This document shows positions 2,777 through 43,336 of a DNA stretch of 64,000 nt, in pieces (positions within the stretch are counted from its first letter, which is position 1; each line of letters opens with the position of its first letter). The notes beneath the pieces were generated by a model. It did no database searches. It saw nothing but the letters and a program-made list of their open reading frames with translations, and was not told the origin of the DNA. A program made the translations under genes and the position numbers. The stretch is from IMG/VR virus record IMGVR_UViG_3300044904_000056, positions 40,041 to 104,040 of that record, one strand, 5' to 3'. This DNA comes from a virus.

Positions 2777-3646
2777 CTAGATAGAACGCTCCCCTCTAGG
2801 AAAACGTAAGTTGCCTTGGAACCCGTTGTAGAGAGAGCGAGGCCTGCCTTCTCCCAGACGTACCCGCTCATACTTGTCCCACTCACAAAGTGCATTCTGC
2901 AAATCCTGCGCATGTATGTCCGGCATTCCTGCTTGAAAAATTTTCGGGCTGATTTTGTCGTAGAGTTCGTCTAGGCATTCCTTCCAATCCGCTTCCTTCC
3001 ACTTAGCCCTCTTATCCCGCCCTATTACACGATTCAACCCTCGTTTGCTCCCAGGGCCAGAGATAGCCCAAGTTGACCAATCCTTTGCGTGCCGAAGCGT
3101 AGCATACTTCACATCAGCAATGACCTGCCCTGTCATAAAGCTTCCCATATCTTTCTGGTCGTGCAGCCTGTCGTAGAATTCCGCAAGCGTATCGCCATCT
3201 CTCGGGCGGATTTCTTTTCTTGCTCCCCACATCGGTGTCAGGACTTGCTTGGCTAGGTATCGGGCTTTCGATTGATGATCTGGACCTGCGTGAATCATAT
3301 ATGCTCCGGTGAAGACTTTCTCGCCGTCTTTCTTTCGCTGCTCCAATACTCTGATGAACTCGTCTGGGTGCCAAGGAACAGGATAACCTAGCTCATCTAG
3401 GGTCTCCGGCCAATTGACAAAACGTGAAACCGTCATAGCGAACCAGAGGTCCTTATCTTCCGCGTGAGGCTCCCGCCAATGCTCCCGTACCCAAATCGTG
3501 ACCGTGTCTAATTCCCGGAACACGTTGCAGAACCGATAGCGCTGAAGTATTGGGTCCCGTGTCCATGGTCGAGGCTTGCCAGCTTGCTTCCGCTTGTAGA
3601 TTGCGTGGCGTTCAAGGATGAAGCGAAGGAGAGGATTGATGTTCAT
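2777..3646 (-). CDS. aGPT-Pplase1 / 5-hmdU DNA kinase helical-domain family protein
   Basis: ERHAIY...PWTRDPILQRYRFCNVFRELD, FTGAYMI, GPGSKRGL and QNALCEWDKY motifs typical of this HhH-glycosylase-related family. Confidence 0.85.
   Translation of the reverse strand: MNINPLLRFILERHAIYKRKQAGKPRPWTRDPILQRYRFCNVFRELDTVTIWVREHWREPHAEDKDLWFAMTVSRFVNWPETLDELGYPVPWHPDEFIRVLEQRKKDGEKVFTGAYMIHAGPDHQSKARYLAKQVLTPMWGARKEIRPRDGDTLAEFYDRLHDQKDMGSFMTGQVIADVKYATLRHAKDWSTWAISGPGSKRGLNRVIGRDKRAKWKEADWKECLDELYDKISPKIFQAGMPDIHAQDLQNALCEWDKYERVRLGEGRPRSLYNGFQGNLRFPRGERSI
2781..2789 (-). promoter_or_regulatory. Recurrent GCGTTCTAT motif (candidate phage middle promoter)
   Basis: Exact 9-mer 21 nt upstream of the TS-like start; copies at 11600, 21416, 24716 and 52101. 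Confidence 0.6.
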
Positions 3647-3999
3647 CAGTTGCCTCTCCTTTGATTTTGATACAGACGTAGCCGTTCAGCCATATTCATC
3701 AGCTCGTTCGCCAGCTCTTCATCGCGGTAGGTGTAGTAACACTGAGTGTTGGACTTCTCTGCCATAGCTTCAAGATTGCTGATGATTTCGTCCAGGTCAA
3801 CTCGGGGGCCACGGTGCTTCTTGCCGGCTTTCTTCTTATCTCGGCAGGATTTGCAGCGTTTTGGCATTTGGAATTCGGGATTTGTTGCCTGAAGACTTTT
3901 GTAGAAGCTTATCTCGCTCTCGTACATCCCCCAGTCCTCGTGGCAGTCTACGCATTGCCCCATCGAAACAAATGCTCCTCGATCTTTATCATCCCCCAT
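3646..3999 (-). CDS. Zinc-ribbon protein (zf-trcl-like)
   Basis: CVDC...EISFY...PKRCKSCR. Confidence 0.65.
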   Translation of the reverse strand: MGDDKDRGAFVSMGQCVDCHEDWGMYESEISFYKSLQATNPEFQMPKRCKSCRDKKKAGKKHRGPRVDLDEIISNLEAMAEKSNTQCYYTYRDEELANELMNMAERLRLYQNQRRGN

Positions 4000-4358
4000 T
4001 TTCTCTTCCTTTCCGCTTTCTCCACTCTACCCAACGTCTCTTCGTAGCTTTACCAATTTTTAGAAGAGCCTGCTTAGTATGCTTGTATCCTTTGCTATTT
4101 TGATTCCCAAATCCGAAATGTTTGCCCGCAGCATTTTTATTCCCTAATTTGGAGAGGCTCATCTTTTTACGGCTCATAGGAGAAAGTTTTCGCCCTAAAC
4201 AGTATTGATTTCCTGTATGAAGTTTGATTAGTCTGCGGCGGTGTTCTGCAGACAATTTCTTTCCCTTCCTGTTATGATTCCCCGCCCCAATCTTATTACC
4301 CATCAATCTTATTACCCATCATCCTTCTTCTCATCTTCTTTCGAGTAGTCGCAGACAT
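3989..4358 (-). pseudogene. NUMOD3-repeat protein without a nuclease domain, frameshifted by a 16-bp duplication
   Basis: NUMOD3-like repeats (GKKLSAEHRRRL, GRKLSPMSRKKMS, GYKHTKQ). ATG at 4358 reads MSATTRKKMRRRMMGNKIDG*; removing one repeat copy restores the frame. Confidence 0.6.
4288..4319. repeat. Perfect 16-bp tandem duplication CAATCTTATTACCCAT x2
   Basis: Copies at 4288-4303 and 4304-4319. Confidence 0.95.
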
Positions 4359-4359
4359 T

Positions 4360-4983
4360 TTAATACCCAAGGAACCATCCCCACAACCAAGCTAGAATAG
4401 TTTGTAATCCATCCTGATAAGGGATAACTCTGACATCTGCCCCTACTTCTCTGAGTCTCTTCTCACTACCTAATACGGCCTTGTATTTTGGATAGAGGGA
4501 TTTGTCCGGGTCAACTGGCCGAGGGTCCTTCCGCTGAATCCTGCGCTTTACCATCCGCTGAAGGCACTTCTCTAAGGGGGTATCCATAAAGCCAAATATC
4601 CAATGCGTATGCGGTAGGCTTCTTGCCAGGTCAATCCAACGCTGGGTCAGGGTAGCAGCCAGCGCTCCCTCGAAAACAACATTCCCCCGCCTGGAAAGGT
4701 CTGTGATTGCCTTGGAAGCGTAATCGGCACGGGTGCTGCCCCTGTAATAGCTTTCGTCAATCGCGTCATAGCCGCCCGTTGTTATCCGGTAAGGCCCAAG
4801 CAGGGCTGTCTTCGTAGGCCCTGTATCGAGGACGTAGGCGAGCACCTTTCCATTCCCAGGGTTAATCAGAGGCGTATTGGAAAAGCTCTCTAGAAGGGAT
4901 TTTGCTAGGGTTGTCTTGCCACTGGCATTCGTGCCCCTGATGTTGATGACGATATGCTTCAGCCGAGGAAATCGTTCCGTCAT
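4360..4983 (-). CDS. P-loop kinase of thymidine-hypermodification loci (5-hmdU DNA kinase-like)
   Basis: INIRGTNASGKTT Walker A, LGPY...GGYD, VVFEG, DTPLEKCLQR; gene context. Confidence 0.75.
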   Translation of the reverse strand: MTERFPRLKHIVINIRGTNASGKTTLAKSLLESFSNTPLINPGNGKVLAYVLDTGPTKTALLGPYRITTGGYDAIDESYYRGSTRADYASKAITDLSRRGNVVFEGALAATLTQRWIDLARSLPHTHWIFGFMDTPLEKCLQRMVKRRIQRKDPRPVDPDKSLYPKYKAVLGSEKRLREVGADVRVIPYQDGLQTILAWLWGWFLGY

Positions 4984-5423: not shown

Positions 5424-5570
5424 TGTGCTTTCGACTCCCTTCTAGGCCCGACTGGTTTTAGGCCAGCCTATTGTTGGTAGCGGACCCAACTAGCCAGTGG
5501 CAGGGTGCTAGCAGAGTTCGTTTACGTGGGGATATAGCTAAACTGGTGTAAAGGCTAGTTTTGAGCCCTG

Positions 5571-6182
5571 CTAGGGGCCTATCCGGGGGAAGCGTAGGGG
5601 GCCAGTCCTCCTGGCCCTGACTATTAGCTCAACAGTAGCCTTCAGCTTCTCCGCTGGGTGAAAGTAGAAGAACTTAGCTTGGGCCGAGAAGATAGGTATA
5701 TGCCGCCACTTCCTAGCCGGAGGCTTCGCATAGCTCACGACCTCCATCCCCGCTAGCATCTCGTTCACACGTTCCCGGTGTTTTTGGACAAGGGCGTAGG
5801 GCTGTTCTAGGTAGAACCAGCAGCCCGGATATTGCAGCCACTGTCGGATATTCCAATGGTCCTGGGTATGCTCCGTCTGCTGAAGGGGAGCCACCCCTAG
5901 AGGCAGAATCACCGTAGAGTCCGGAGGGGGCCAAGTGTGGACTGGCTTGAGCATCTCTTTCCAATCGCAATCTCCTCCAATATAGTTGTATCCTTGCCAG
6001 TAAGCACCTACAGCATCGGCGTAAGTCTCCGCATCCCGCAGGGAGTTCTTCTTCACAGGGACCATAGTCAGAATGGTAACCTGCTTGCCTTCCTGAATCC
6101 ACTGCTCGATATGAGCCCCTAGCGAAAGGAAGGCATCATCACTGTGAGGCTCTACGATAACCAGGCGGTCATTTATGGGCAC
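5571..6182 (-). CDS. PIG-L/LmbE-family deacetylase-like protein
   Basis: IVEPHSDD and HTQDH zinc motifs, YLEQPY; GTG start at 6182 after GGAGG. Confidence 0.7.
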   Translation of the reverse strand: MPINDRLVIVEPHSDDAFLSLGAHIEQWIQEGKQVTILTMVPVKKNSLRDAETYADAVGAYWQGYNYIGGDCDWKEMLKPVHTWPPPDSTVILPLGVAPLQQTEHTQDHWNIRQWLQYPGCWFYLEQPYALVQKHRERVNEMLAGMEVVSYAKPPARKWRHIPIFSAQAKFFYFHPAEKLKATVELIVRARRTGPLRFPRIGP

Positions 6183-6774
6183 GTTTCGGCCTCCGGAAGA
6201 CGCTGAGATGCCGCCCATACCAGTTGGAAGTAATTCTTTCGTCAGCTAATATCGCTTCGCACAACTCCTTGGTGACCTTCTTTTCAAAGGTGAATCCGGC
6301 AAGCACAAATAGTTGCCGCCAATAGCCTTTAGGCTTGCAGTTCACGTGGTACCGGCCCCATTCAGAAGAGTCGATGGACAGGAGCACCCATTTTGAGGAG
6401 AGCCGTTTCACCGTATCCACTAAGACTTTCTCAGAGGACTCCGGGATGTGCTCGAATACATCCCACGAGGTTACCAGGTCAAATTTTTTGTCCAAATGGA
6501 AGGACTTTGATAGGTCGTGGGCTATGTATTTCGCTCCTTCCGCGAATCTGCTGTTGAACTCAGAACCATCCACCCCATAAGCCCTTACTCCTAGCTCTGA
6601 CAGCCGATTCACAAACGACATCGTACCACAACCCAGGTCAATGCAACGCTTGGGGTGAAATCTGTTGAAGATGAGCTCTGCTAGATATTTCGAGGACACG
6701 TGGGGTCCTTTTGTGGACCTGGTGCGATTTTTGAACCACTTCAGTGGATAGAGTTCACTTAGCTTTTCTTCCAT
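6169..6774 (-). CDS. Class I SAM-dependent methyltransferase
   Basis: IDLGCGT, GVD, FDLVTSWDVFEHI, HVNCKPKGYW. Confidence 0.85.
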   Translation of the reverse strand: MEEKLSELYPLKWFKNRTRSTKGPHVSSKYLAELIFNRFHPKRCIDLGCGTMSFVNRLSELGVRAYGVDGSEFNSRFAEGAKYIAHDLSKSFHLDKKFDLVTSWDVFEHIPESSEKVLVDTVKRLSSKWVLLSIDSSEWGRYHVNCKPKGYWRQLFVLAGFTFEKKVTKELCEAILADERITSNWYGRHLSVFRRPKRAHK

Positions 6775-7268
6775 AGTCGTGGGAACCTCATCGGGAAATT
6801 AGGTCTTGCAAATTCTCCGAAAAATTCTTTGGCAGCAGTATCATAAGCCTTCGCTGCGGCTATCGGATTGTCGAAGGAACCTAGATGAATAACTTTCCAA
6901 TATACACAAATCTGCGCATACCATTTCCTAGCACCTTTGTGCCAAGAGACACCTTTGAATCCTGATTTGTTATTTGAATGCTTTCCTTGGTTAGCCAGAT
7001 TCTGCGAGTTAGAAGCATCTCTCAAATTATCTTTTTGACAATCTAGCCCATTTCCATTCTTATGGTCTATCCCTTTGCGCCCTAATATAAAATTGTGTAG
7101 AAGAAAATTAGGAACTCCCATTTGTCCGTGAGCTGCGTACGACTTACCCTTAGAGCCAGATGTATAGTGCCATATGCCCTCAGCTGTTACACGTTCATAA
7201 TCTTCGTCATCAACAAGTGCATAGGCTCTTATCTTTCCTTTTCGATTGCGAAGCGGAATTTTCTTCAT
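6759..7268 (-). CDS. HNH-AP2 homing endonuclease
   Basis: DHKNGNGLDCQKDNLR (HNH) plus SGFKGVSW...WYAQI...HLGSF...AAKAYD (AP2). Confidence 0.9.
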   Translation of the reverse strand: MKKIPLRNRKGKIRAYALVDDEDYERVTAEGIWHYTSGSKGKSYAAHGQMGVPNFLLHNFILGRKGIDHKNGNGLDCQKDNLRDASNSQNLANQGKHSNNKSGFKGVSWHKGARKWYAQICVYWKVIHLGSFDNPIAAAKAYDTAAKEFFGEFARPNFPMRFPRLWKKS

Positions 7269-8386
7269 CGTCTAAACTCGTCAAAAACTTCATCATATAG
7301 TTTGTAGGCTGAATGATTGTCGTTTACATATTCCCTCGCTTCCTTTCTAGGATACCCTCTCACATCATATTTCATAATCGCTTCAGGATACTTGGCCAGG
7401 TCAGAGATAGGCAGTACCAAATTATCTGGGATGGCACTTCGGAGAAGGTTTTTGTGCACTACAGGGACGCAGCCATAATATAGAGCCTCAACAATTGTGT
7501 TGTTGTAGGAACCTCTCCGGTAGGCTTTATATTTTGCCCTATGCCCTTGAAAGTCAGCCATGAATCCCGCTCTGGAAAGGATTTTTGCCCGTCTCTCTAC
7601 TGAGACCCAACCATAGTAGGTTGCTAAGCCCTTCCCTGAGTATTGTGGGGCAAAAAAATCCTTACCAACGACCTTCTTCCAGCCATTTTCTTTTCTCATG
7701 TTATAGTATTCAATGCCGGAATTGTAGAGCTTTACTTCGTAACCTTTGTCGAGGAGTCGAGGTACCCCATCAAAGAAGGGTTTGATTCCTTTCACATTCT
7801 TCCATTGAGGCATCCATACAACGCGATTCTCAATGCGTTCCTTTTCGGAAGGCTTTCCGATAGGAATAAAAGGAATATAAACGGTCTGTACCGGATAGCC
7901 TGCTTTGACGAGAGGCTCTCCATAAGCAGGCTGAGTCACGAGAGTCTTCTCGCATAGCGGCAAAACTTGTTCCCCAAACTCCTTGTATGTATCCCAATAA
8001 GCATCCGAGATATAGCCGACAATCGGTATATCCAGTTTATTCAGCCTCTTTAACAAGGCCATAAAGACAGGACTGCCCCCATAAGCTTTTGTCGGATGCG
8101 GACAGAGGAAGCTCAACATCACTACATCGTAGGATGTTAGAAAGGCTAAAGTCTCTCGATAGTTTTCCCTATGGTGTGGAGCGTAGCCATCAATAGTGAT
8201 GTAGGAATCCCCACCACGGATTAATTTTCTTTCAGGCAACAAGAGGGGATGTTTTGTTTTCTGGTTGGCGCTAACGAGGACGTGAAAGGTGTCACCTTTC
8301 TGGTCTGCTACCTTCCGATAGGTTCTCAGGCGAGTGTTGATGCCCCCTACGGAAGAGGTAGGCCAATGCAGGACTGCAATTTTCAC
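7265..8386 (-). CDS. GT-B-fold (GT4-like) glycosyltransferase
   Basis: N-terminal KIAVLH...VGGI, QWKNVKGI, YGWV and NNTIVEALYYGCVPVV nucleotide-sugar motif; GTGA overlap start at 8386. Confidence 0.75.
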   Translation of the reverse strand: MKIAVLHWPTSSVGGINTRLRTYRKVADQKGDTFHVLVSANQKTKHPLLLPERKLIRGGDSYITIDGYAPHHRENYRETLAFLTSYDVVMLSFLCPHPTKAYGGSPVFMALLKRLNKLDIPIVGYISDAYWDTYKEFGEQVLPLCEKTLVTQPAYGEPLVKAGYPVQTVYIPFIPIGKPSEKERIENRVVWMPQWKNVKGIKPFFDGVPRLLDKGYEVKLYNSGIEYYNMRKENGWKKVVGKDFFAPQYSGKGLATYYGWVSVERRAKILSRAGFMADFQGHRAKYKAYRRGSYNNTIVEALYYGCVPVVHKNLLRSAIPDNLVLPISDLAKYPEAIMKYDVRGYPRKEAREYVNDNHSAYKLYDEVFDEFRR

Positions 8387-9003
8387 GATGCTTTCCTGAA
8401 GAGGAGATAGATGCTCCTCTTGTTTGCTGATTGAGCTACTAGCCGATAGCCCAGCCCTAGGAAGCAAGTCTCCATCTCTAGAGCCGGCAGGCGTCTCGAA
8501 TCGGTCAGGACTACCCAAGCGGCTTTGTCAAAGACGGCTTCTGTGACAGTTCTGTATTGCCTCTTGGCTTTACTGAGAGTCCAATCGGGGAAGTCTGCCA
8601 CTACAAGGTCTGGATGCTGAAAGAGACTATCTATCACTACCGATTGAGCCCCACCAAGAGGCTCTATGATAGAGGTAGACCAGCTATGGTGCCGCCCTGC
8701 TTCCAGGATGTACGCATAGCAGCGCCTCTCATTTGAGTAGACTTCGTGCTTGTTGGGATTGAATAGCAGCTGAAGGATTTGAGCGTTGACTCCCACCCCA
8801 CCAAACAGTTCAACGATGTTCTTTGGTTGCGGAGCAATTTGGCTGACGAGCTCAAAGAATCGCCTAGCTTCAGCCTCGGTCTCCCCAGGTTCGTAACGGA
8901 GCCGCCAGAATATGCCCCGCTTCGATGGCAGAGTGTTCTTCGCAACTCGGGGGAGTTTAGAGGGGAGCATGATGCGTGCTCCGGCCACAAGGATTGATTG
9001 CAT
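8383..9003 (-). CDS. Putative SAM-dependent methyltransferase
   Basis: IVELFGGVG motif I, DLVVADFP motif IV-like. Confidence 0.55.
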   Translation of the reverse strand: MQSILVAGARIMLPSKLPRVAKNTLPSKRGIFWRLRYEPGETEAEARRFFELVSQIAPQPKNIVELFGGVGVNAQILQLLFNPNKHEVYSNERRCYAYILEAGRHHSWSTSIIEPLGGAQSVVIDSLFQHPDLVVADFPDWTLSKAKRQYRTVTEAVFDKAAWVVLTDSRRLPALEMETCFLGLGYRLVAQSANKRSIYLLFRKAS

Positions 9004-9085: not shown

Positions 9086-10264
9086 CTACGCTGCTGCCTT
9101 GCAAGCCTTCCCGAAGATTTTGAGCTTGGCCCCGAGATGAGACACGTCACCCGTGAACAGAAACTTCCCGGCAATCTTCGCCTCTTGCCAGTCCGACTTC
9201 TTGAGCCCCAGCTTCTCCAGCTTGGTCTTCGGATAGAGATAGACGCGAAAGCCTTCGTCCTTGTCCGGGCGGATGAATCGTGCCCAAGGCCCACCAGGAT
9301 ACTTGACATAAAGCTCCCCGCTGCTCTTGGTCTCAACCTCCGCACCCAGCGCCTCTGCCTTGCTAGACACTAGGATGTCCTTCACCGCACTGGAGAGCTT
9401 ACCACTCTTGGAAGACTTCTGCTTCTTTTCCTTGTGATGGTGATGCTTGTGTTCCTTTTTGGACACTTCCTTGTCCTCCTCTTTCTCGTGCTTCTTTTCT
9501 TCCCTGGGATGGTGATGCTTATGACCCTTCTCCTTCTTTCTCTTGTCTCCCTCCTCTTCCCTATTAGCTTTCAGAACTGCGATACAATTCTTGGACTCAA
9601 CGCAACGCTGGCACTCTGGCACATCCGGGTCGGGGTATTTCCCGAAGCAATCTTCAATTCCGGAGGGAATCGGTATGGACGGTGCCCGGGGTTTATACGT
9701 TGCCGGGTCAATCTGTACGAGGGGGGAGCCTTTCGACTCCCCCCTCTCGCTGCTGTCGTCCGAGGCATCCTCAGAGCTATCATCCTTCTTTTCTGAAGAA
9801 TCGTCCTTCTCTTTCCCGTGGTGCTTCTTGCTACCCTTCCTGCCCTTCGGAGGCTCTGGCTCCTCAGAGCTGTCGTCCTTCTTGTCGGAGGCATCAGAGG
9901 CGTCACTAGCATCGCTCTTGTCCGATGCGTCGCTAGCATCCGAGGCATCACTGGCATCTGAAGCATCAGAGGCGTCAGAAGCGTCACTGGCGTCAGAAGC
10001 TTCAGAGGAGCTATCGTCCTTCTTGTCGGATGCGTCGGAAGCATCCGATGCGTCGCTAGCGTCCGAAGAATCTGGAGCTTCAGAACTGTCGTCTGGCTCC
10101 TTCTTCTTCGTTGAGGACTTCTTGGGAGACTTCTTTGAGGACTTTGGAGTTTCTTCCTCAGAGCTGTCGTCAGACTTGTCCGGCTCCTCTTCCGAGGAAT
10201 CGTCAGCAGCCTTCCCTGGTTTTGCCTTGTGCTTTTTCTTCTTGTCTACTTTCTTTTCGGCCAT
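9086..10264 (-). CDS. Low-complexity Asp/Ser/Lys-rich protein with a C4 zinc motif
   Basis: (DAS)n tract, DDSSE-type blocks, K/H-rich blocks, CFGKY...CQRC...C; coupled to the sigma gene and followed by a terminator. Confidence 0.8.
   Translation of the reverse strand: MAEKKVDKKKKHKAKPGKAADDSSEEEPDKSDDSSEEETPKSSKKSPKKSSTKKKEPDDSSEAPDSSDASDASDASDASDKKDDSSSEASDASDASDASDASDASDASDASDASDKSDASDASDASDKKDDSSEEPEPPKGRKGSKKHHGKEKDDSSEKKDDSSEDASDDSSERGESKGSPLVQIDPATYKPRAPSIPIPSGIEDCFGKYPDPDVPECQRCVESKNCIAVLKANREEEGDKRKKEKGHKHHHPREEKKHEKEEDKEVSKKEHKHHHHKEKKQKSSKSGKLSSAVKDILVSSKAEALGAEVETKSSGELYVKYPGGPWARFIRPDKDEGFRVYLYPKTKLEKLGLKKSDWQEAKIAGKFLFTGDVSHLGAKLKIFGKACKAAA
9884..10070 (-). repeat. Degenerate 9-bp coding repeat encoding (Asp-Ala-Ser)n
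   Basis: Synonymously diversified GAY-GCN-WSN units. Confidence 0.9.
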
Positions 10265-10861
10265 CTACCATCCTCCTTCAGAGTCAACAACTGCGGTTCT
10301 TATTTCGTCCACTACACGCCGCACATCCCCACTTCGCATCCCTAGATACCCCCGGATGTGTCGCAGTTTGATGCGGAAGCTCTTTGCACCCCGGACATTC
10401 TGTCCCTGGGAAATAAGTTTGTTTCTCCGGCAGAAATCCCTCCACGCAAACTCAGAAACTTGAATTGGTGGGTCTAAAAGTATTTGCAGGAACATCCGGG
10501 CTTCACAGGAGAGTATCGGATATAGAACTTCCGCCCGTTCGTGCATCCGGTAAAGGAAGTTATCTGCATAGTCTGGCCAGTTGTCTGCCTCCCCTAATTG
10601 GACCTCAACTCCGTCCCGGCTCCAAGTTCTATCAAACCGGGAAAGGTCCCGAAGGCGGTTGTATAGGGCACGTTTGAAATATCGTGCGAAATAGATTTGA
10701 CCATCTGGGAATTCTTCGCAGCATTGGACCAATATGAGCAGGCCCTCTGCTTCTAGCTCCTCTGATGATCTACGGAAATGACCAGGTATCGCGTAGTGAT
10801 GCGCTACCCAGTGGATGAGATTCTTGAAACGACGCAAGGCAACGTCCGTATTGTATGCCAT
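10265..10861 (-). CDS. Phage sigma-factor-like protein
   Basis: FKNLIHWVAHHY...EELEAEGLLIL...FARYFKRALYNRLRDL (region 2-like) and a C-terminal HTH-like segment; ATG at 10861 after GGAGGAGG. Confidence 0.7.
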   Translation of the reverse strand: MAYNTDVALRRFKNLIHWVAHHYAIPGHFRRSSEELEAEGLLILVQCCEEFPDGQIYFARYFKRALYNRLRDLSRFDRTWSRDGVEVQLGEADNWPDYADNFLYRMHERAEVLYPILSCEARMFLQILLDPPIQVSEFAWRDFCRRNKLISQGQNVRGAKSFRIKLRHIRGYLGMRSGDVRRVVDEIRTAVVDSEGGW

Positions 10862-10895
10862 GACGCTGGGATACGCCTCCTCCAAGGCGAGTCGG

Positions 10896-10943: not shown

Positions 10944-11579
10944 CTACTTGCCTATTTTGGCTTTCCGGCGAGGCGTGGAAACCTTCTGACTCCTGGAAAG
11001 CGGTCTCTTCTTGGGAACAGCGGCTCTCTTGGTTTGCGCTTTATTCTTGCCAATTCTTCCTCCGTGTACACGACGTACTCGACTGGGATTTTTCTTCCAT
11101 GCGTTGATGGAATGCTTAGGACCACGTGGCGCTTTCCGGTTGCTGGGTCTACTCTTTCGCTTTTGAACTTTGCTTCTGGGATCAGTTTTCTCAGGCTGGA
11201 CAAAGTCGCATTTGCGTAATTTGACCTCGGCTCTACGGATGCGCTTTGGGAAGGACTCAGAGCCGATGAGCTTCCTGCACTTGAGACAACGGACTGTGCT
11301 TGCACCTTCTACCTCCTCTCTGCCTGATGGGCAATGGCATATCTCTGAAGGTACATCTCTTGGGAATCGGAGGGGCCTTGGATACCGCTTGATTGACCGG
11401 GGAGTTCTGACCGTTATCATACTCCAAAACCAATTTTGCCTAGTCTGGTCTTTCTGGGTCCACACTTGTACCCCAAATTTGGGGAGCAATTTGTAGACCT
11501 TTCCAGTGCGCCCGGTAACGGTATCCACAACATACGTCACTCCAGGGATGATAACTTTCTCACCGTAGGCCCCATCCAT
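10944..11579 (-). CDS. Hypothetical protein with CxC...CxxC (3' half may be read in another frame)
   Basis: AGGAGG RBS and upstream GCGTTCTAT motif. Confidence 0.6.
   Translation of the reverse strand: MDGAYGEKVIIPGVTYVVDTVTGRTGKVYKLLPKFGVQVWTQKDQTRQNWFWSMITVRTPRSIKRYPRPLRFPRDVPSEICHCPSGREEVEGASTVRCLKCRKLIGSESFPKRIRRAEVKLRKCDFVQPEKTDPRSKVQKRKSRPSNRKAPRGPKHSINAWKKNPSRVRRVHGGRIGKNKAQTKRAAVPKKRPLSRSQKVSTPRRKAKIGK
10952..11305 (-). CDS. Hypothetical overlapping ORF ending in LFPR/RFPG/RFPR
   Basis: Protein-like 3' half; no clear start of its own. Confidence 0.45.
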   Translation of the reverse strand: MQAQSVVSSAGSSSALSPSQSASVEPRSNYANATLSSLRKLIPEAKFKSERVDPATGKRHVVLSIPSTHGRKIPVEYVVYTEEELARIKRKPREPLFPRRDRFPGVRRFPRLAGKPK

Positions 11580-11657: not shown

Positions 11658-12347
11658 CTACTTCTTTTTCTTCGGAGCGACCACCTTCACCTTCGCAGCC
11701 ACGTACTCCTTCAAAGGTTTTGCTGGCGAAAAGCGTATCTTATTACTTGCTGGCTTCGCAGGGAACGTCTTATGCTCCCCTGTGAATGGAACGATTCCCT
11801 TTCGTTTTGGCAGGGCCTTCCGGTAGGCAACCCGGATACGGCCAATCTCCGGCAGGCGGAAGAATCGGTCATTCTTCAGACCGTGGTGAGCTTCCGTCAC
11901 CAGAGCTTCGTAGATGGACCGGACAATTTTGGTTGTCTGGCCTGTTTCCTTCGCAATTGCAGTGTAGAGTTTCATCTTGCGTGATTCTCCTTTGTCTCCC
12001 TCTTTGGGGAATATGATTATGTACTTCTGCCGGGTCCGGGGTCCGCTATAGAGCTTCGCACCAAAATGCTCCTGGAGGAGGCTGATAATCTCCTCAGAAA
12101 GGTGCGTGGTGTAGCAGCCGTGAAACTTCTTCACTACGATTTCGTGAAGCTGTTCCTTGGGTACGTTGAAATAGTCAATTCCTAGACGGCGGTACAAATT
12201 CGCCATCTCGATATCGGCGTGGGCTCCTCCGTGGCGGAGGCGTTCTAGTTTATCTGTCTTTTCCTGACGGAAGAGACGGTTGTCAGCGAGACGCTTTGCT
12301 TTTTGTTCGGGAGTCTCGTTTGAGGTTATGTGGAAGGCGTGACTCAT
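11658..12347 (-). CDS. HU/IHF-family DNA-binding protein (domain from internal ATG 11975) with an in-frame N-terminal extension
   Basis: AIAKETG...FRLPEIGRI...RKGIVPFTGE...PAKPASNKIRFSPAKPLKEYV; AAGGAG before ATG 11975. Confidence 0.85.
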   Translation of the reverse strand: MSHAFHITSNETPEQKAKRLADNRLFRQEKTDKLERLRHGGAHADIEMANLYRRLGIDYFNVPKEQLHEIVVKKFHGCYTTHLSEEIISLLQEHFGAKLYSGPRTRQKYIIIFPKEGDKGESRKMKLYTAIAKETGQTTKIVRSIYEALVTEAHHGLKNDRFFRLPEIGRIRVAYRKALPKRKGIVPFTGEHKTFPAKPASNKIRFSPAKPLKEYVAAKVKVVAPKKKK

Positions 12348-14193: not shown

Positions 14194-15576
14194 TCAATTC
14201 ACCTTCTCTTTCGGAATTGGTTTAACTTCTGGAGTTGAGGCCGGGGGAAGAGTTGTTGCATCAGCAGGGACGGACAGGACGTGCCCGCCTTCGATGGAGA
14301 GTTTCATCATCAGGTCAACATCAGCCTGCTTTGTATTCGGAGAGTGGAGGCGCTGCATTCCGCGTTCAGGGGAGATGTAGAACATATCACCTTTCCCGAG
14401 GAGGTGTTCCGCCCCCTTGCAGTTCAGGATGGTCTTACTATCTGCTGAGGACGGGACTCGGAATGCTGCGCGAGCCGGGAAGTTGACCTTGATCTTGCCG
14501 GAAACAACATCCACAGATGGGCGCTGCGTTGCAGCTATCACGTGGATACCGGCAGCGCGGGACATTGCCGATATTTGGGCCATCTTATCGGTGAAGGACT
14601 TCTTCTCTGACAGAACGAGGTCTGCCATCTCATCGATGACGACGACAATATAAGGCCAGCAGTCATCGGGCTTTCCTTCCGCCTTCATCTTGTCGTTGTA
14701 CTCCTTGAGGTTCTTACACTTGAACCCGAAGAGGTTGGAAGTCCTACGGCGCATTTCCTGAATCAGCCTCTCCATAATCGAGAGGGCGTCATAGACTCCA
14801 GCAACCGGGGGCTGCATCAGGTGAGGCAGGCCTTGGTAGTGGAAGAGTTCCACGGACTTTGGGTCAATCAGGACCAGCTTCATCTGCTTCGGGGTACGCA
14901 TGTAGAGGAGAGAGGTTAGGATACCGTTGATCCAAACGGATTTGCCTGCGCCTGTTGAGCCTGCGATAAGTAGGTGAGGCATCCTCGTTAGGTCCTCTAC
15001 ATAGGGCTGACCGTTGGACTGGACTCCGAAGTTGATCGGCAGTTCCATATCGTCCCTGTGGGCGATTGCGGCCCCTAGGCAGTCCGCAAATTGGATCTCC
15101 GTTCTCTCCTTATTCGGTACAGAAATAGCAACCGCACTCTTGCCGTGAAGCCTCTGGATGGAGACATCTTCCGCTGCTAGACCAATGGCTAGGTCCTCGT
15201 TAATGTCCTTGATTCTCCGGAGCCGGGTATAGCGGTCAGGGCTGAACTCATACTCCGTAACGATAGGACCAACGCGGATATCCGTAACCTTCCCAGGACA
15301 ATCGAAGTCGCGGGTGCGGGTCGTTATGATATCCACTACCTTCTGCTGTTCGGGGTTGGCAGCTAGTTCCCGAGGGAATCGCTGGACGCCCTTTGGGTAG
15401 GCTTTCTTGCCCTTCTCTAGTCCTTCCTTCTCTGGGTCGTACTTATCGATGAGATTCCCGCAGAGCAGGCAGCGCCTATAAAGGGTATAACGGGAAATGG
15501 AAACAGCATCCTTTCCACCTACACCTTTACAGCCTCGACAAATCGCCAGCTTGAAGCCGTTCGTATGATCCTTCAT
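14194..15576 (-). CDS. ftsK: FtsK/SpoIIIE-family DNA translocase
   Basis: MPHLLIAGSTGAGKS, LIDPK, VVVIDEMADL, RAAGIH, ATQRPSVDV, GAEHLLGKGDM. Confidence 0.95.
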   Translation of the reverse strand: MKDHTNGFKLAICRGCKGVGGKDAVSISRYTLYRRCLLCGNLIDKYDPEKEGLEKGKKAYPKGVQRFPRELAANPEQQKVVDIITTRTRDFDCPGKVTDIRVGPIVTEYEFSPDRYTRLRRIKDINEDLAIGLAAEDVSIQRLHGKSAVAISVPNKERTEIQFADCLGAAIAHRDDMELPINFGVQSNGQPYVEDLTRMPHLLIAGSTGAGKSVWINGILTSLLYMRTPKQMKLVLIDPKSVELFHYQGLPHLMQPPVAGVYDALSIMERLIQEMRRRTSNLFGFKCKNLKEYNDKMKAEGKPDDCWPYIVVVIDEMADLVLSEKKSFTDKMAQISAMSRAAGIHVIAATQRPSVDVVSGKIKVNFPARAAFRVPSSADSKTILNCKGAEHLLGKGDMFYISPERGMQRLHSPNTKQADVDLMMKLSIEGGHVLSVPADATTLPPASTPEVKPIPKEKVN

Positions 15577-15601
15577 TCTCTCTTCTCCTTGCCCAGAGAC
15601 C

Positions 15602-15799
15602 CTAAAGGGTACTCGGGCGTTTCTTAACCTGAGCACTGCCTATGTCAATCACCTTCCTACTACTCTGGCAGATCGGACAACGATTCCAATGGTCATACCA
15701 CTGCAAAGTCGCGGCGATAAACCCGCCTATGGAGTTGTCCAGACGGTTTACCCTTTTCACTAGCCTGTTCTCAACTCGACATCGGCGGCTTTGCACCAT
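15602..15799 (-). CDS. Hypothetical protein (CxxC)
   Basis: GGAGGAGGT RBS. Confidence 0.5.
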   Translation of the reverse strand: MVQSRRCRVENRLVKRVNRLDNSIGGFIAATLQWYDHWNRCPICQSSRKVIDIGSAQVKKRPSTL

Positions 15800-21434: not shown

Positions 21435-22109
21435 CTATCGTTCCAACTCAGATTTGATACCCCGAATCACGCTGTGCCGGAGCCTCGAATTTTTCCTAAG
21501 CTCCCACAAGGCCCTCCGCACGTGTCTCCACTCCCTACTACTGTACAAATAGCCTGCAATGAATAGGGGGCTCAAATCCTTGAAGATTGCGAGGAAGACT
21601 TGGCTTGATGGAACCCCAAGCTGCCTTTTGGCTTCCATAAATATCCTCGTGGAAGATTTCGCACTAGCATAGGCATCCTCCTCTGTCCATACATTGAGAT
21701 ACCGCTTCCAGTCCTCCTCCAGCTTGTACAACTGCCTGTCTTTCTTAACCAACCAGGTGTAGATTTCCAGAGCCTTATCGCTCGCCAGAAATGCCGGATG
21801 GGGCATGGTCCTCGAATTCTTGTAGTGGCCATACCGACAAAGCACCTTCACATACAGGCTTGGGTCTAGCTTCTTTTCAACCAGCTTCGGAGCAAGAAGC
21901 ATAAATGCTCGCATTGCTCTCCAGCCTACCTTCGTCCTGTAGATATCCCAATCCCAAGTCCGCTTGTTCTTGTACGACCTGCTACGTTTGCTAACATCCT
22001 TCGATTTCGCAATCTTGTTGTACGTCAGCCTCAGAATCCCCATCACCAGCTTTTCACTTCCTGTCAATTTCCATCTCGGGAATCTCTGTGAAGTCCTTGC
22101 CATTCGCAC
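21435..22109 (-). CDS. Hypothetical basic protein (possible initiator or helicase loader)
   Basis: Position between the repeat-rich gap and the helicase; function inferred from context only. Confidence 0.6.
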   Translation of the reverse strand: MRMARTSQRFPRWKLTGSEKLVMGILRLTYNKIAKSKDVSKRSRSYKNKRTWDWDIYRTKVGWRAMRAFMLLAPKLVEKKLDPSLYVKVLCRYGHYKNSRTMPHPAFLASDKALEIYTWLVKKDRQLYKLEEDWKRYLNVWTEEDAYASAKSSTRIFMEAKRQLGVPSSQVFLAIFKDLSPLFIAGYLYSSREWRHVRRALWELRKNSRLRHSVIRGIKSELER

Positions 22110-22710: not shown

Positions 22711-24188
22711 TTTTCCCTCCTGATGATTTTGATGTCTGCCATATCTTCCCTTTCATAGAGTTTCAGCCTCTTCACTGAATGCCGGAAGAGATATTTGTTG
22801 CCTTTGTCGATGAAATCAGTCACAAAAATTTTGTTAGGCCCCTTCTGCTTTGCCCTCAAGGTCCTCCCAAGCCTCTGGAGCACCAGCTCCATACCCTGAC
22901 CCCCTGCACAGTTCACCCATGCGGAGATTTCAGGAACATCCATCCCCACGCTGAAAACGTCACTCACTACTAGAATAGGAACGCGGCCCCGCTTAAAATC
23001 GTTGATCATCCTTTCCCGTACAGGCAGAGGTGTTCTCCCGGAAAGGAACTCTGACTTCAAATCTGTTGCCTGTTCTAGCTTATGGAGGAGCTTCAGCCCG
23101 TGTTTGATACGGACTACTGTAACTAGCACTTTCAAGTCCTTTTCAAGATAGCGGAGGACCTCTTTCACTGCTGTTCTGTTGCGCTTGCTGTTCCTAACTA
23201 TCCCTTTCTGGTAGGATTCTGGATAGGTTGAATACTCCTCGCAAGGAACTTCGATGAACCGGATGTAAGGCTTTGCTGAACGGCCTTTCTCAACTAGCTC
23301 CTTGTTCCGAATTTCTGCTAGGACAGGCCCTGTCAGCCCAGTGTAGTGCATCATCTTGACTTTGCTCTTCTCATCGATGGTTCCTGAAAGCCCAAAACGC
23401 ATCGGAGCTTGGCAAAATTTCGTGATGCGGACAGCAGTAGCAGCCTTATTCAGATGGAATTCGTCAAAGAACAGGATGTTGCACTTCTCAAGGAATCTCT
23501 TGAACTTCCATACGTGAAGGACATTGTTAGCCGTCTGAACTGTTGCAACAATAATCCCCTTGCTAGGAATCCGCTTCCTGCCTGCCCCTAGCATTGTGAC
23601 AGGAATATCAAGGTGCTTCCGGAACCTCTCTGCCGTCTGCTTTACAAGGCTTGCCCGGTGAATAATTAGCAGAACTCTCGGGGCCTTCTTCAACTGCCTA
23701 TGGTACTCTGCTATGATAGCGCAAGCCATCTCTGTCTTACCTGCGTTGGTAGCGCAGTGCAGAATCCCCCTACCGTTGAAGAGAGCCTGCCGGACAGCAG
23801 ACAGTTGTTCCTCCCGGACTTCAACTTCATCCTGGAAATCGAACTTCTTGAAAGTCAGATCAAACTTTGGGAGAGGCTTCCGCAGGTCGTGGATTTCAAG
23901 TTTCCCCTTATAGTGCTTCTTGACGTACTCGACTAGGCCTGATGCGAAGGTCCCTGACCTTTTATCATAAAACCGGATGTACTTGGCCTTGTTTTGAATC
24001 TCCTCAATTCTCTTCTTTCGCTCCCTCTTGTCAGGGATGCTACTGAACCAGGCGAGCCTCTTGAGAAGCTGAAAAGCACGCCATTCACCAGACTTATCTA
24101 GCACCCGCAAGATATGGTAGAGCTTCCTGCGTTCGTGCTTATCCCCACTGTATGACGTGCGGGCCTCGCGGATAGTCAGTTCAATCAC
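22707..24188 (-). CDS. Superfamily 2 DEAD/DEAH helicase (UvsW-like)
   Basis: ATNAGKT, DEFH, GLSGT, GMDVP, QRLGRTLR. Confidence 0.92.
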   Translation of the reverse strand: MIELTIREARTSYSGDKHERRKLYHILRVLDKSGEWRAFQLLKRLAWFSSIPDKRERKKRIEEIQNKAKYIRFYDKRSGTFASGLVEYVKKHYKGKLEIHDLRKPLPKFDLTFKKFDFQDEVEVREEQLSAVRQALFNGRGILHCATNAGKTEMACAIIAEYHRQLKKAPRVLLIIHRASLVKQTAERFRKHLDIPVTMLGAGRKRIPSKGIIVATVQTANNVLHVWKFKRFLEKCNILFFDEFHLNKAATAVRITKFCQAPMRFGLSGTIDEKSKVKMMHYTGLTGPVLAEIRNKELVEKGRSAKPYIRFIEVPCEEYSTYPESYQKGIVRNSKRNRTAVKEVLRYLEKDLKVLVTVVRIKHGLKLLHKLEQATDLKSEFLSGRTPLPVRERMINDFKRGRVPILVVSDVFSVGMDVPEISAWVNCAGGQGMELVLQRLGRTLRAKQKGPNKIFVTDFIDKGNKYLFRHSVKRLKLYEREDMADIKIIRREK

Positions 24189-24693
24189 GGGGTATCTCAG
24201 AGTATTTGCCCTTAATCCTCGGAAACCACTTTGACCGGGGGAATCTTACGTGGCCGTGCAGGAATAGGTCAAGCTGCCTTTTCCATATCTCTTGCTCCTT
24301 CAGCCTTTTCTCTTGCAGACCTTCTATGTAGTCCTTCCGGAGAAACCCGCAGGAGCAGTCTGGAATCCTCTGATATTCATAGCCTTTCCCATAGCCATAG
24401 TACACATCTCCAATTCTAAGCCTTGAAGCCCGCCAATGAAGGTATATCCGCTTGATAAGTCTCTTCCGGGAGCCTTTGCTCTTCAAAGCGTGTTTCTCGC
24501 ATAGTTCCCGGAGACGTTCTGTTGTCTGCCTCATAGCCCAACTTGGGAGATAATCACCAGGATTCCAAGAACCATGTTTGTGCCGGTCGTACTTTGGTGC
24601 AGGATATTTCTTCCGAAGTTTGATAAACCATCGCACCATCTCCAGTTCATTCTCATCATCAATTCTTGGGAACCTGGGTTTATTCACTATCAC
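24181..24693 (-). CDS. SAP-like-domain protein
   Basis: TTERLRELCEKHALKSKGSRKRLIKRI resembles a SAP motif; two RFPR and one WFPR. Confidence 0.55.
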   Translation of the reverse strand: MIVNKPRFPRIDDENELEMVRWFIKLRKKYPAPKYDRHKHGSWNPGDYLPSWAMRQTTERLRELCEKHALKSKGSRKRLIKRIYLHWRASRLRIGDVYYGYGKGYEYQRIPDCSCGFLRKDYIEGLQEKRLKEQEIWKRQLDLFLHGHVRFPRSKWFPRIKGKYSEIPRD

Positions 24694-40980: not shown

Positions 40981-40988
40981 TAACCCTC

Positions 40989-41002
40989 TCACCTAAATTT
41001 AC
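40989..41002 (-). promoter_or_regulatory. GTAAATTTAGGTGA motif
   Basis: At the head of the head-tail gene block. Confidence 0.55.
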
Positions 41003-41712
41003 TTTTCCAGGAGGCTGATAACTTTGTCAGCAACGACCTTCGGATTGTGCTTTACGTCCCGTTCCTTGAAGTGGACAACCCGGTAGCCGAGCTTTCGGAG
41101 ATCACGGTCTCTTTTACGGTCTCTAGCTTTGTTTCGATGCCAATAGGAACCATCTACTTCAATTAGCAACTTAGATTTTGGGATCAAAAAATCAGGAAAA
41201 TATGGCCCAACCCAAACTTGAAATCTGTACTTGATTTTGAGCCCTTTCAGAATCTCTATCATTCGCTGTTCGAGGCCATTCGGATGTTTTGATACACTAG
41301 AAAATACCTTTGGAAGAAACTTCCTTCTTGCAGCTATCATCTTTTCACTACGTTTCAATCCTCTGCTTATTGCTCGCCCCCAAGCTTTTGAATGTTTTCT
41401 TCCCTTACGGGTCTTACTCATCTTCTCTTTTGTTTCTTGGGTACAGACCTGGCCCATATGCGCCAGGCTAAGATTTTCACAATGTTTTTTAGAAAGCTTC
41501 TTGCCTTTATTCCACGCTTTAATTTTTCCTTGTCTCTTAAGCTTGCGAAATGTAGCTCTCAACTTCTTTGTCATTTTTGCAATTTTAGGGTCAGTTTCAG
41601 CAGTTTTTCCTTTGTTCCAGGGAGGGAAATCGTTACCATTCTCCCTTCGAACAGCCCAACCCTTGATAGCATACAAACTTCTCTGATCCGAAGACCAATC
41701 TTCAAAAGACAT
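40999..41712 (-). CDS. NUMOD3 + DUF559/Vsr-like endonuclease
   Basis: WNKGK repeats; PDF...IEVDGSYWH...DRKRD..L...GYRVVHF. Confidence 0.85.
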   Translation of the reverse strand: MSFEDWSSDQRSLYAIKGWAVRRENGNDFPPWNKGKTAETDPKIAKMTKKLRATFRKLKRQGKIKAWNKGKKLSKKHCENLSLAHMGQVCTQETKEKMSKTRKGRKHSKAWGRAISRGLKRSEKMIAARRKFLPKVFSSVSKHPNGLEQRMIEILKGLKIKYRFQVWVGPYFPDFLIPKSKLLIEVDGSYWHRNKARDRKRDRDLRKLGYRVVHFKERDVKHNPKVVADKVISLLEK

Positions 41713-41715
41713 ATC

Positions 41716-42867
41716 TTAGCTCAGGATTTCCATAATTTTTGAAGCAACTACTCGGGGGCTCAACTGTTCTAAACAAGGAGAAAATTTCGACCCGTTTATA
41801 GATTTGCATTGGCAAGTATCTATAAAACATGCGCTTGTGCAGCACTCCTTGCCGTCTGGTAGAAGCCCTTTCACTGATTCAACCCGGAGTCCGTGAGCGC
41901 TGGGAAAGTGCCACAAAAACGGCTGCGGCTCATGGGGGCCATACGTAACCACACAGGGTTTCCCTCTTGCTGCACGAGGGTACAGAAGCCCCGTGTCTGA
42001 ACTGCAGTGCAAATCAGCTTCGATGATGACGGCTGCTGAATGGCGTATCCTGAAGACTCCCGAACAATCTTCAACATTCGCACCCCGCCAAGGCTCTCTC
42101 CGGTTTGAATCAAGGATAAGCCATAGGTAGTTTTTCGGGCATAGGCGGATGACTTCCTTCCAATGTGGGTAGTTTTTGTATGGAGTGCTCGCATACGGGA
42201 GCAGGGTAATAACCTTACGCCCTTTGTCCTTGAGGGGCTTGAGGAACTTCCGCGCTGTTTCCATCTCGTGCTCAAACGGATAGTAATAAATCGTGTTCTT
42301 TTCAGGAGGTGGGTCAATGAACGCGTGCATGCAGTACATATCCAGCGCAATCATCCGGTAGCGGGAAATGACAGAGGTAGAAGCCTGATTCACAAAGTCC
42401 AGCTCGTCTGTAGTCAGGGATTTCGGGTCCTTCGCTAGAAGGCTGACAAGAAATTCGTTGAGATGGGGCTTCGTGCGAAGGTGGATTTTGTAGTTGTACC
42501 CCCCCTTCAAGGGGACATCGTAGTCGAGCCAGCACCAGTCTTCCTTGAAGGTGTCACCGATTTCTTCCATACTGCTATACTCCATATAGTGATAGACCTT
42601 TTCGATATCAGGATTATTCTCTAGGATTTCAGGGCAAGTGCAAATGTAATGAATCTTACAAGTAGGGAATTTCTTCTTAATTTCATGTACGGCTGCTGTT
42701 GAATACAGGATGTCCCCAATTCCCCACGTGTGCTTGATAACAAGTCGCCTTCCGGACAGATTAGTTTCCCTACGAAGAGGTTCCCTCCTGCGCAATCGCT
42801 CTTGATATTCCTCCCAGGAAAATTCCTTCACGCGCTGCCCATATTCATTAATCAGAATGCGTGGCAT
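41716..42867 (-). CDS. GT9-like (heptosyltransferase-like) glycosyltransferase
   Basis: WGIGDIL, ILENNPDI, SSDTGLLY, YGP. Confidence 0.8.
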   Translation of the reverse strand: MPRILINEYGQRVKEFSWEEYQERLRRREPLRRETNLSGRRLVIKHTWGIGDILYSTAAVHEIKKKFPTCKIHYICTCPEILENNPDIEKVYHYMEYSSMEEIGDTFKEDWCWLDYDVPLKGGYNYKIHLRTKPHLNEFLVSLLAKDPKSLTTDELDFVNQASTSVISRYRMIALDMYCMHAFIDPPPEKNTIYYYPFEHEMETARKFLKPLKDKGRKVITLLPYASTPYKNYPHWKEVIRLCPKNYLWLILDSNRREPWRGANVEDCSGVFRIRHSAAVIIEADLHCSSDTGLLYPRAARGKPCVVTYGPHEPQPFLWHFPSAHGLRVESVKGLLPDGKECCTSACFIDTCQCKSINGSKFSPCLEQLSPRVVASKIMEILS

Positions 42868-43336
42868 GTATAGTAGTCCTTCCTTTCTTCACATTTTTCC
42901 AACGAATTGATTGTGCTTTTCTCATCTTGCAGCGTGCTGTCTTGGTGTGTTTATGGCCTAGGAAATTCTGGTTGCCTTTCATTCCTTCGCTTAACCTGCG
43001 CCGATGATCCTCGGTGAATTTGTACCCGAGACAATTATGGTTACCTTTCAGGGCCCTACTCTTGGCTTCGCTGTTTGTCAGCCTTCTCGGGAACCTAGCA
43101 ATTCTAGGAATCCCTAGATAGTGAATAGCCCTTTGCAACAATTCAAGACTATCACAAAAGGAACCAAGCCCCATATTACATCTGATACAAAGAACTCCTC
43201 TAAATGCTCCTGTTCTATGGTTATGGTCTAGCTGAGGCCGGTCTGGGGGCTTATCCCCACAGACAGCACAGCAGCCTTCTTGAAGTTTTAGAAAATCCTT
43301 TTTCAACTCTTGGTTTTGATTAGAGTTGTATGCCAT
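42848..43336 (-). CDS. Endonuclease-VII-type nuclease + NUMOD3
   Basis: CAVC...DHNHRTGAFRGVLCIRCNMGLG. Confidence 0.85.
   Translation of the reverse strand: MAYNSNQNQELKKDFLKLQEGCCAVCGDKPPDRPQLDHNHRTGAFRGVLCIRCNMGLGSFCDSLELLQRAIHYLGIPRIARFPRRLTNSEAKSRALKGNHNCLGYKFTEDHRRRLSEGMKGNQNFLGHKHTKTARCKMRKAQSIRWKNVKKGRTTIHATHSD

Follow-up and report, generated by a model that had tools for sequence, protein, structure and literature searches.

The stretch of DNA analysed here, called the window throughout, is the right-hand 64 kb (64,000 nt) of the 104,040-bp single-contig phage record IMGVR_UViG_3300044904_000056, and the element under study is a four-residue peptide, RFPR, that recurs in many of the proteins encoded there. 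The genes of this phage lie nearly all on the minus strand. A six-frame scan of the window finds RFPR 13 times. Eleven copies are in frame in 10 long minus-strand open reading frames (ORFs), exactly where a preliminary description of the window had placed them, and the other two fall in short non-coding frames of the opposite strand. We extended the analysis to the whole genome, using the ORF set of a simple, non-overlapping caller (149 ORFs, 32,840 residues) and assigning domains by scanning about 75 proteins against Pfam and PHROGs. Related contigs were sought in IMG/VR with RecA and a RecA alignment, and then with an alignment of the single-stranded DNA-binding protein (SSB). This genome is G000 in what follows, and its relatives are labelled G001, G002, G005, G006, G007 and, for further loci, L with a number.

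The RFPR sites and their carriers are collected in Table 1. The first carrier, ORF 2777..3646, had been labelled aGPT-Pplase1, a label that we withdraw because Pfam identifies the protein as a 5-hydroxymethyldeoxyuridine (5-hmdU) DNA kinase helical-domain protein (PF18723, E 4e-47). Three genes near it have no RFPR: a methyltransferase, a low-molecular-weight phosphatase and the 417-aa ORF 7265..8518, which was earlier called a glycosyltransferase and has no PHROGs match. Several further carriers belong to no recognised family, and at least 15 unrelated families carry the peptide in all. The portal was identified through a weak lambda-family portal match seen in its G002 orthologue. In every Pfam-annotated carrier of this genome the tag lies outside the domain envelopes, as expected of a short linear motif, and 13 of 19 tags are within 25 residues of a protein end, bearing out the earlier statement that the copies sit mostly at termini or in linkers. 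Selfish nucleases are indeed tagged, namely three EndoVII-NUMOD3 enzymes, of which two are paralogues outside the window with the same linker site, and one HNH-AP2 enzyme. The claim that no virion protein is tagged holds inside the window but fails genome-wide, since the portal C-tail is tagged in five of six genomes.

Table 1. Positions of RFPR, of candidate reader proteins and of the RLRE[S/A] motif (window coordinates unless marked as genome coordinates; aa, amino acids)
Feature	Position	Strand	Carrier and context
RFPR	2795..2806	-	Residues 281-284 of 289-aa ORF 2777..3646; C-tail past PF18723 domain (residues 5-264)
RFPR	4963..4974	-	Residues 4-7 of 207-aa ORF 4360..4983; P-loop 5-hmdU DNA kinase-like
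RFPR	5583..5594	-	Residues 209-212 of 215-aa ORF 5571..6218; weak PIG-L deacetylase match
RFPR	6777..6788	-	Residues 161-164 of 169-aa HNH-AP2 endonuclease ORF 6759..7268; past AP2 domain (101-150)
RFPR	10973..10984	-	Near C-terminus of ORF 10952..11305, in a frame overlapping the tail of ORF 10944..11579
RFPR	11358..11369	-	Residues 71-74 of 211-aa Cys-rich ORF 10944..11579; preceded by RYPR
RFPR	15370..15381	-	Residues 86-89 of 480-aa FtsK/SpoIIIE-like ATPase ORF 14194..15636; just before FtsK alpha domain (95-174)
RFPR	22074..22085	-	Residues 9-12 of 224-aa ORF 21435..22109; no family assigned
RFPR	24235..24246	-	Residues 150-153 of SAP-like ORF 24181..24693 (second copy); WFPR six residues on
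RFPR	24664..24675	-	Residues 7-10 of 170-aa SAP-like ORF 24181..24693
RFPR	43085..43096	-	Residues 81-84 of 162-aa EndoVII-NUMOD3 homing-type endonuclease ORF 42848..43336; inter-domain linker
RFPR	outside window		RecA, residues 4-7
RFPR	outside window		Phage metallopeptidase PF18894, C-tail
RFPR	outside window		Helix-turn-helix protein directly upstream of the large-terminase gene, taken as the small terminase (TerS), residues 9-12
RFPR	outside window		Portal, 1261 aa, 60 residues from C-end
RFPR (two)	genome 33498..33647	-	49-aa Cys-rich protein, one copy at each end; 6.4 kb before window start
Candidate reader	9086..10264	-	Polyacidic protein, 392 aa, untagged, clade-specific; polyacidic tract of about 180 aa, Cys4 knuckle, C-terminal MotA-like domain
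Candidate reader	11658..12347	-	HU fusion, 229 aa, untagged, clade-specific; winged-helix-like N-domain and HU/IHF-type DNA-binding domain
Candidate reader	outside window (A5)		gp32-type SSB, two genes from tagged RecA; untagged, long Ser/Asp/Glu tail
RLRE[S/A]	53550..54644		Residues 28 and 39
RLRE[S/A]	55208..57430		Residue 616
RLRE[S/A]	57427..58164		Residues 27 and 120
RLRE[S/A]	58542..59249		Residue 51
RLRE[S/A]	59360..60637		Residue 36
RLRE[S/A]	outside window		Portal

Whole-genome counts put the excess of RFPR beyond chance. The called proteins hold 16 copies in 15 proteins, where 0.29 are expected from residue frequencies (Poisson 9e-23), and 300 within-protein shuffles give a mean of 0.35 and a maximum of two, with no 4-mer of any kind exceeding nine copies. 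Three more in-frame copies lie in ORFs that the caller missed, two in the 49-aa protein and one in the overlapping-frame ORF 10952..11305, which brings the genome total to 19 (about 0.3 expected). Two copies lie in the other five frames of the whole genome, as many as chance would give. The tag is borne by about one in eight of this phage's proteins. Among 4-mers that occur in at least four proteins, RFPR shows the strongest enrichment in G000, G001, G002 and G005. Codon usage at 60 sites drawn from six genomes covers the six codons for Arg, the two for Phe and the four for Pro, each in comparable number, indicating that selection acts on the peptide and not on the DNA, as had been proposed from the window, and the full codon diversity leads us to reject a DNA-level signal. 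The excess could also be functionless, produced by shared descent, composition bias or such a DNA-level signal, and three carriers are in fact paralogous EndoVII-NUMOD3 nucleases whose site is common by descent. However, collapsing these paralogues to one leaves 17 independent copies against 0.3 expected, the shuffles give two at most, the codons are fully varied, the non-coding frames stand at chance, and the motif is invariant across orthologues that are 42-77% identical and have unalignable flanks. A functionless excess is effectively refuted by these data.

The enrichment is restricted to one clade of phages. The IMG/VR search found 11 related contigs (RecA 45-70% identical), to which the scan with the SSB alignment adds three, and each related contig carries 1-11 RFPR in a locus of 9-21 kb. 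Five relatives available whole or in large part hold 17, 22, 13, 7 and 10 copies in all three coding-strand frames, and the enrichment appears in every relative fetched (RecA 42-77% identical). The clade density is about 0.3 per kb. As controls, 80 phage loci encoding the same kinase helical-domain family have no RFPR in 78 cases and one each in two, the six-frame ORFs of 80 metagenome RecA loci, 821 kb in total, contain 19 (about 0.02 per kb), and two near-complete outgroup phages (RecA 28% identical) have zero and one. Relatives therefore keep the peptide, whereas the approximately 160 control loci and the two outgroup genomes are not enriched. The clade is uncultured and sizeable, with members of roughly 100 kb: its longest contigs are mostly about 100-108 kb, one being 207,626 bases, and the closest cultured RecA is only about 33% identical. 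A segment of the window gave no nucleotide match among GenBank phages, and a search for relatives of the gp32-like SSB in 185,579 bacterial genomes, made for a clue to the host, found none. A full-text literature search for RFPR as a phage signal returned irrelevant matches only. As a separate observation, G006 (IMGVR_UViG_3300032053_000099) has GMKW/MKWG dispersed in five proteins, with an enrichment above that of RFPR there; this may be a paralogue family or another shared peptide.

Conservation of the tag against its surroundings is clearest in RecA. A collection of 5.8 billion proteins contains 40 RecA clusters with 42-100% identity to the RecA of this phage, and 34 of them have RFPR within the first 18 residues. 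Of the other six, P0035 has RWPR, and in the remainder either the call is truncated at its 5' end or the tag is missing, as it is in P0037 and P0030; neither P0035 nor P0037 has a close relative in IMG/VR. In 11 of 11 aligned RecA N-termini RFPR is invariant while the flanks cannot be aligned, so that the motif stands as an island of conservation. Orthologues of TerS are tagged in 6/6 genomes, of the portal in 5/6, of the FtsK-like ATPase in 4/5 and of the metallopeptidase in 4/5, and orthologues hold the tag at the same end despite wholly changed flanks. The orthologues of the unassigned ORF 21435..22109 in G002 and G005 likewise have RFPR near the N-terminus.

Gain and loss are equally evident. 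The kinase helical-domain protein ends in a C-terminal RFPR in G000, G001, G002 and L182 (orthologues 26-66% identical), has a decayed RFAR in L179 and has no tag in L183, L185 and L186. Lineage-specific hypermodification enzymes of 464 aa in G001 and 463 aa in G002, without homologues in the other genomes, end in RFPR or RFPRTFRFPR. The G001 orthologue of the P-loop kinase-like ORF 4360..4983 has the tandem pair RFPRTHRFPR, and the deacetylase-like ORF 5571..6218 has no orthologue in G001 or G002, the relatives compared. The G002 homologue of EndoVII carries two RFPR at its C-terminus and none in the linker. Tandem copies are common, with linkers of 1-8 residues, and one 112-aa protein holds four. 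Gain on unrelated proteins together with loss on homologues is the behaviour of a short linear motif, and the view that RFPR is such a motif, under selection at the peptide level and gained and lost independently, is strongly supported by its enrichment, its codon diversity, its conservation in the clade and its location outside domains.

Two kinds of small carrier concentrate several copies. In ORF 10952..11305 degenerate LFPR and RFPG stand just upstream of RFPR 10973..10984; its product is kept in G001 (56% over 86 aa) and G002 (35% over 126 aa), and the C-terminal copies number two in G001, three in G002 and three in a similar multi-tag tail of G007. At the site within the overlapping ORF 10944..11579, G002 has RFPR and G001 has RFAR. 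In no fewer than three related genomes (this one, G001 and G002) both minus-strand frames are free of stop codons for about 350 nt, and from this we read the arrangement as a putative overlapping gene pair or programmed frameshift. Carriers of the second kind are 49-75 aa long and have an RFPR at each end; their genes sit at one shared position, flanked by those for the exonuclease and the metallopeptidase, in G000, G001 (about 42009..42195), G002 (about 73426..73624) and G005. These two-ended proteins differ in fold, being Cys-rich in this genome and helical in the relatives.

The residues around and within the tag follow rules. From 89 distinct contexts the extended motif reads as [I/V/P]-x-R-[F>Y,H]-P-R-[L/E/T]: Ile, Val or Pro stands at -2 in 71% of them, the residue at -1 varies, and at +1 Leu accounts for 33% and Glu for 15% (13/89). 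Some tags have acidic flanks, such as RFPRIDDENELE and RFPREADD, and in four contexts the protein ends exactly at RFPR. Among 141,681 clade residues RFPR occurs 60 times (1.3 expected), RYPR 10 times (1.0) and RHPR six times (0.7), that is with about 10-fold and 8-fold enrichment of the latter two, and RWPR occurs twice. KFPR (0) and RFPK (1; 1.3 expected each), RLPR (2) and RFGR (1; 1.9 expected) are not enriched. These results indicate that both Arg residues are obligatory, that Lys is not accepted and that an aromatic residue is wanted at position 2. The strict Arg, the aromatic residue and the flank preferences together suggest a shaped pocket.

The main rival to such a pocket is that RFPR is itself a nucleic-acid anchor, a minor-groove or modified-base arm like an AT-hook or the GRPR arm of Hin recombinase, which without any protein receptor would lend its carriers added affinity for the phage's hypermodified, 5-hmdU-derived DNA. 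Arginine is favoured over other residues in the minor groove, and Hin and homeodomains have Pro-Arg arms, so the obligatory Arg and the exclusion of Lys agree with this explanation. It also accounts for nearly all carriers of known function binding or processing DNA, the metallopeptidase and the weakly matched deacetylase being uncertain, for tandem copies with linkers of 1-4 residues, which resemble repeated groove-binding units, and for the EndoVII tag in a linker adjoining NUMOD3, an extended DNA-binding element. Moreover, a thymidylate-synthase-like gene and 5-hmdU kinase genes, present in all clade members, could make the DNA clade-specific. The flanks speak against it: the +1 residue is often acidic, some contexts are strongly acidic (RFPRIDDENELE and RFPREADD again), four copies end the protein and so place a carboxylate beside the last Arg, and I/V/P at -2 and Leu at +1 look like contacts with a hydrophobic surface. 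The 80 other phages with the same kinase helical-domain family are not enriched in RFPR, the tailoring enzymes vary between clade members while RFPR is constant, and base-specific reading by 4-7 residues is physically unlikely. On balance we regard a direct DNA anchor as unlikely, though it deserves serious weight.

The same terminal positions could instead mark covalent processing or turnover, with RFPR serving as a protease site (of the RxxR or FPR type), a degron recognised by a protease of the host or the phage, or a site of Arg or Pro modification. R-x-x-R and Phe-Pro-Arg are minimal substrate patterns of some serine proteases, terminal placement is typical of degrons, and the phage encodes a metallopeptidase (PF18894) that is itself tagged. 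We reject cleavage on account of the exact C-terminal copies, which leave nothing past a scissile bond after the last Arg, and a cut at the N-terminal copies would remove only 6-12 residues. The proteins most consistently tagged, RecA, TerS and portal, are core and long-lived, the tandem and two-ended layouts are not expected of a cleavage site, no arginine-modifying enzyme is among the scanned proteins, and the head proteins bear another motif, RLRE[S/A], as the likelier prohead-protease site. A processing or turnover mark is accordingly a very doubtful explanation.

We favour, at a probability of about 0.55, the reading that RFPR is the core of a portable docking motif read by one receptor specific to the clade or its host. 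Under this proposal, RFPR on flexible termini and linkers would be recognised by one common protein receptor, and the receptor would gather at one place the proteins that act on phage DNA: RecA/UvsX, the small terminase, the portal, the FtsK-like translocase, hypermodification enzymes, the metallopeptidase, homing endonucleases and DNA-binding proteins. Genes new to the phage would join by evolving four residues. The tandem copies and the small proteins with two tagged ends or with three to four copies fit avidity or regulation of the receptor. That the tag serves docking, that a single receptor reads it and that the receptor is a protein are three things that we infer.

Four observations weigh against this proposal. 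Since all carriers of known function handle DNA, direct DNA binding explains the list equally well. Some tandem copies are only 1-2 residues apart (RFPRLRFPRL) and could hardly fill two pockets together. No sliding clamp, SH3, WW, TPR or other peptide-binding or compartment protein appears in the Pfam and PHROGs scans. In addition, in any genome examined, RFPR is never found on the polymerase, the primase, DnaB-like or other helicases, SbcCD, the exonuclease or either half of the large terminase (TerL), nor on sigma-like proteins, the thymidylate-synthase-like enzyme or virion proteins other than the portal; a docking model alone does not explain the untagged polymerase, primase, helicases, SbcCD and TerL. 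The preliminary description is supported in part: the tag behaves as a portable short linear motif, but for the proposed shared hub the scans found no clamp, peptide-binding domain or compartment protein.

Three untagged proteins restricted to the clade are candidate readers: a gp32-type SSB, a fusion of a winged helix with HU, and a polyacidic MotA-like protein. All three are absent from both non-enriched outgroup genomes and present only in RFPR-bearing contigs of the clade, although not in every fragmentary one; the profile does not discriminate among them. All three are DNA-bound, and any of them could be a platform for the tag. A 62-aa ORF between the SSB and RecA genes was considered as a reader and rejected, being absent from several clade members.

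The gp32-type SSB was assigned from its AlphaFold model, which Foldseek matches to T4/RB69 gp32 (8gme_A, 1gpc and 2a1k; probability 1.0, E 1e-5 to 3e-4). Of its zinc ligands, H53, C62 and C77 are invariant and C80 is present in at least 90% of sequences, and together with the acidic tail these are the features of a gp32-type protein. The assignment was made by fold comparison only; neither the gp32-like alignment nor the UvsY-like one, nor a multi-tag tail, gave anything significant when used as a profile against PDB sequences. The gene lies outside the window in a T4-like recombination module (genome 35099..40664) beside the polymerase, which is of the PolA type, in the order polymerase, 151-aa coiled-coil protein, gp32-type SSB, small ORF, RecA. 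The coiled-coil protein is, by eye, tentatively UvsY-like. Elsewhere outside the window (genome 22801..26488), two separate ORFs make up the large terminase, one for the ATPase (401 aa) and one for the nuclease (222 aa), with a 201-aa HAD/PNK-like ORF and an HNH-like ORF between and beside them.

The polyacidic protein 9086..10264 had been put forward earlier as a partner to fold with the tag. Its acidic tract consists of (DASD)n, (DDSSE)n or poly-Asp/Glu according to the phage, while the Cys4 knuckle is conserved. A confident model of the C-terminal domain has as its best structural match the DNA-binding domain of T4 MotA (Z 7.4, root-mean-square deviation 3.6 A, 94/104 residues), a weak likeness which, although the top match, is below the level that proves homology. 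A sigma-70-region-2-like gene, 10265..10885, adjoins it. The protein may be a transcription-takeover factor; its features give no evident peptide reader, and it stays on the list as an untagged clade-specific candidate. The HU fusion 11658..12347 is conserved in G001, G002 and G006, the gene in G002 having been missed by the ORF caller. It recalls TF1, the HU homologue of phage SPO1 that prefers hydroxymethyluracil (hmU) DNA.

In a more specific form of docking, a clade-specific DNA-bound reader (the gp32-like SSB, the polyacidic MotA-like protein or, by analogy with TF1, the HU-winged-helix fusion) would mark the phage's own 5-hmdU-derived DNA and recruit proteins bearing [IVP]-x-RFPR. We hold this self-DNA addressing to be rather improbable. 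If it were true, a single plug of four residues would connect recombination, hypermodification, branch resolution and packaging. Selfish endonucleases and captured enzymes would gain entry by evolving that plug, and two-ended or multiply tagged small proteins would act as cross-linkers or as competitors that tune occupancy.

Cells organise their DNA metabolism by means of common docking peptides, among them PIP boxes, clamp-binding motifs and SSB tails, and we know of no comparable genome-wide tag described for a phage in which no clamp was found. The present analysis contributes the extended motif with its substitution rules, RecA, TerS and portal as core clients, the overlapping-frame multi-tag ORF, the two-ended small proteins across the clade, the gp32-type SSB assignment and the short list of candidate readers. 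The identity of the reader would bring to light an interaction at the organising centre of this uncultured clade, whose phages have hypermodified DNA, and would show how mobile nucleases and new enzymes plug into viral machinery. A tag of 4-7 residues that works in many contexts could also be reused as a recruitment handle.

We compared RFPR with known systems in which a short peptide directs many proteins. Like encapsulin cargo-loading peptides and T4 capsid-targeting peptides, RFPR is a terminal tag common to unrelated proteins, which in those systems is read by one viral or virus-like structure. It differs in that its carriers are replication, recombination and packaging enzymes, which are implausible as capsid cargo, and in that no cleavage is indicated; nor does it resemble T4-type prohead-protease or capsid-targeting sites, because the portal is the sole tagged virion protein and four contexts end at RFPR. 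The head region of this phage has a motif of its own, RLRE followed by Ser or Ala, which occurs 14 times in 12 proteins (0.8 expected), in most cases close to the N-terminus of a head-region protein and with matching positions in G002 and G005. It is probably where a prohead protease cuts, at sites of the T4-like 'L-x-E' type. The AT-hook (RGRP core) and the GRPR arm of Hin are, like RFPR, short Arg/Pro peptides, near-invariant, on flexible extensions and sometimes in tandem. RFPR differs from them in having no Gly-Arg-Pro core and is not an AT-hook; it requires an aromatic residue, often has acidic flanks, occurs at exact C-termini and is confined to one clade.

APIM is a PCNA-/beta-clamp-interacting motif of the form [KR]-[FYW]-[LIVA]-[LIVA]-[KR], and RFPR shares with it a basic-aromatic-x-basic layout on many genome-maintenance proteins. 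The study that shows APIM binding to the beta-clamp found neither beta-clamp binding nor activity for the four-residue RWLK (PMC7261172). RFPR does not fit the APIM pattern, which has five residues, two of them aliphatic, whereas RFPR has four, with Pro at the third, rejects Lys and has flank preferences of its own. Among classical clamp-binding motifs are QL[SD]LF for the bacterial beta-clamp, the PIP box Qxx[LIVM]xx[FY][FY] of archaea and eukaryotes and the gp45-binding C-terminal tails of T4/RB69. Here the likeness is one of organisation: one short peptide at the ends or in the linkers of many unrelated DNA-metabolism proteins, with clients that include nucleases, resolvase-type and DNA-modifying enzymes and a SprT-like protease, is gained and lost apart from the catalytic domain and is read, or in the case of RFPR would be read, by a single hub. 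The peptides themselves differ, being Gln plus hydrophobic in the one case and basic with Pro in RFPR, with no Gln/Leu-Phe pattern in the core or in the 89 contexts, and for RFPR no clamp gene was found among the roughly 75 proteins scanned, the polymerase is PolA type, the replisome is untagged, and TerS and portal are core clients.

SSB hubs offer a further comparison. The C-terminal tip DDDIPF of E. coli SSB and the acidic C-terminal domain of T4 gp32 gather partners on DNA. In the phages studied here the polarity is reversed: the peptide is on the clients, and a pocket for it would have to be on the hub. In both, a DNA-bound hub would gather recombination, repair and replication proteins, and the clade has a gp32-like SSB with an acidic tail beside its tagged RecA.

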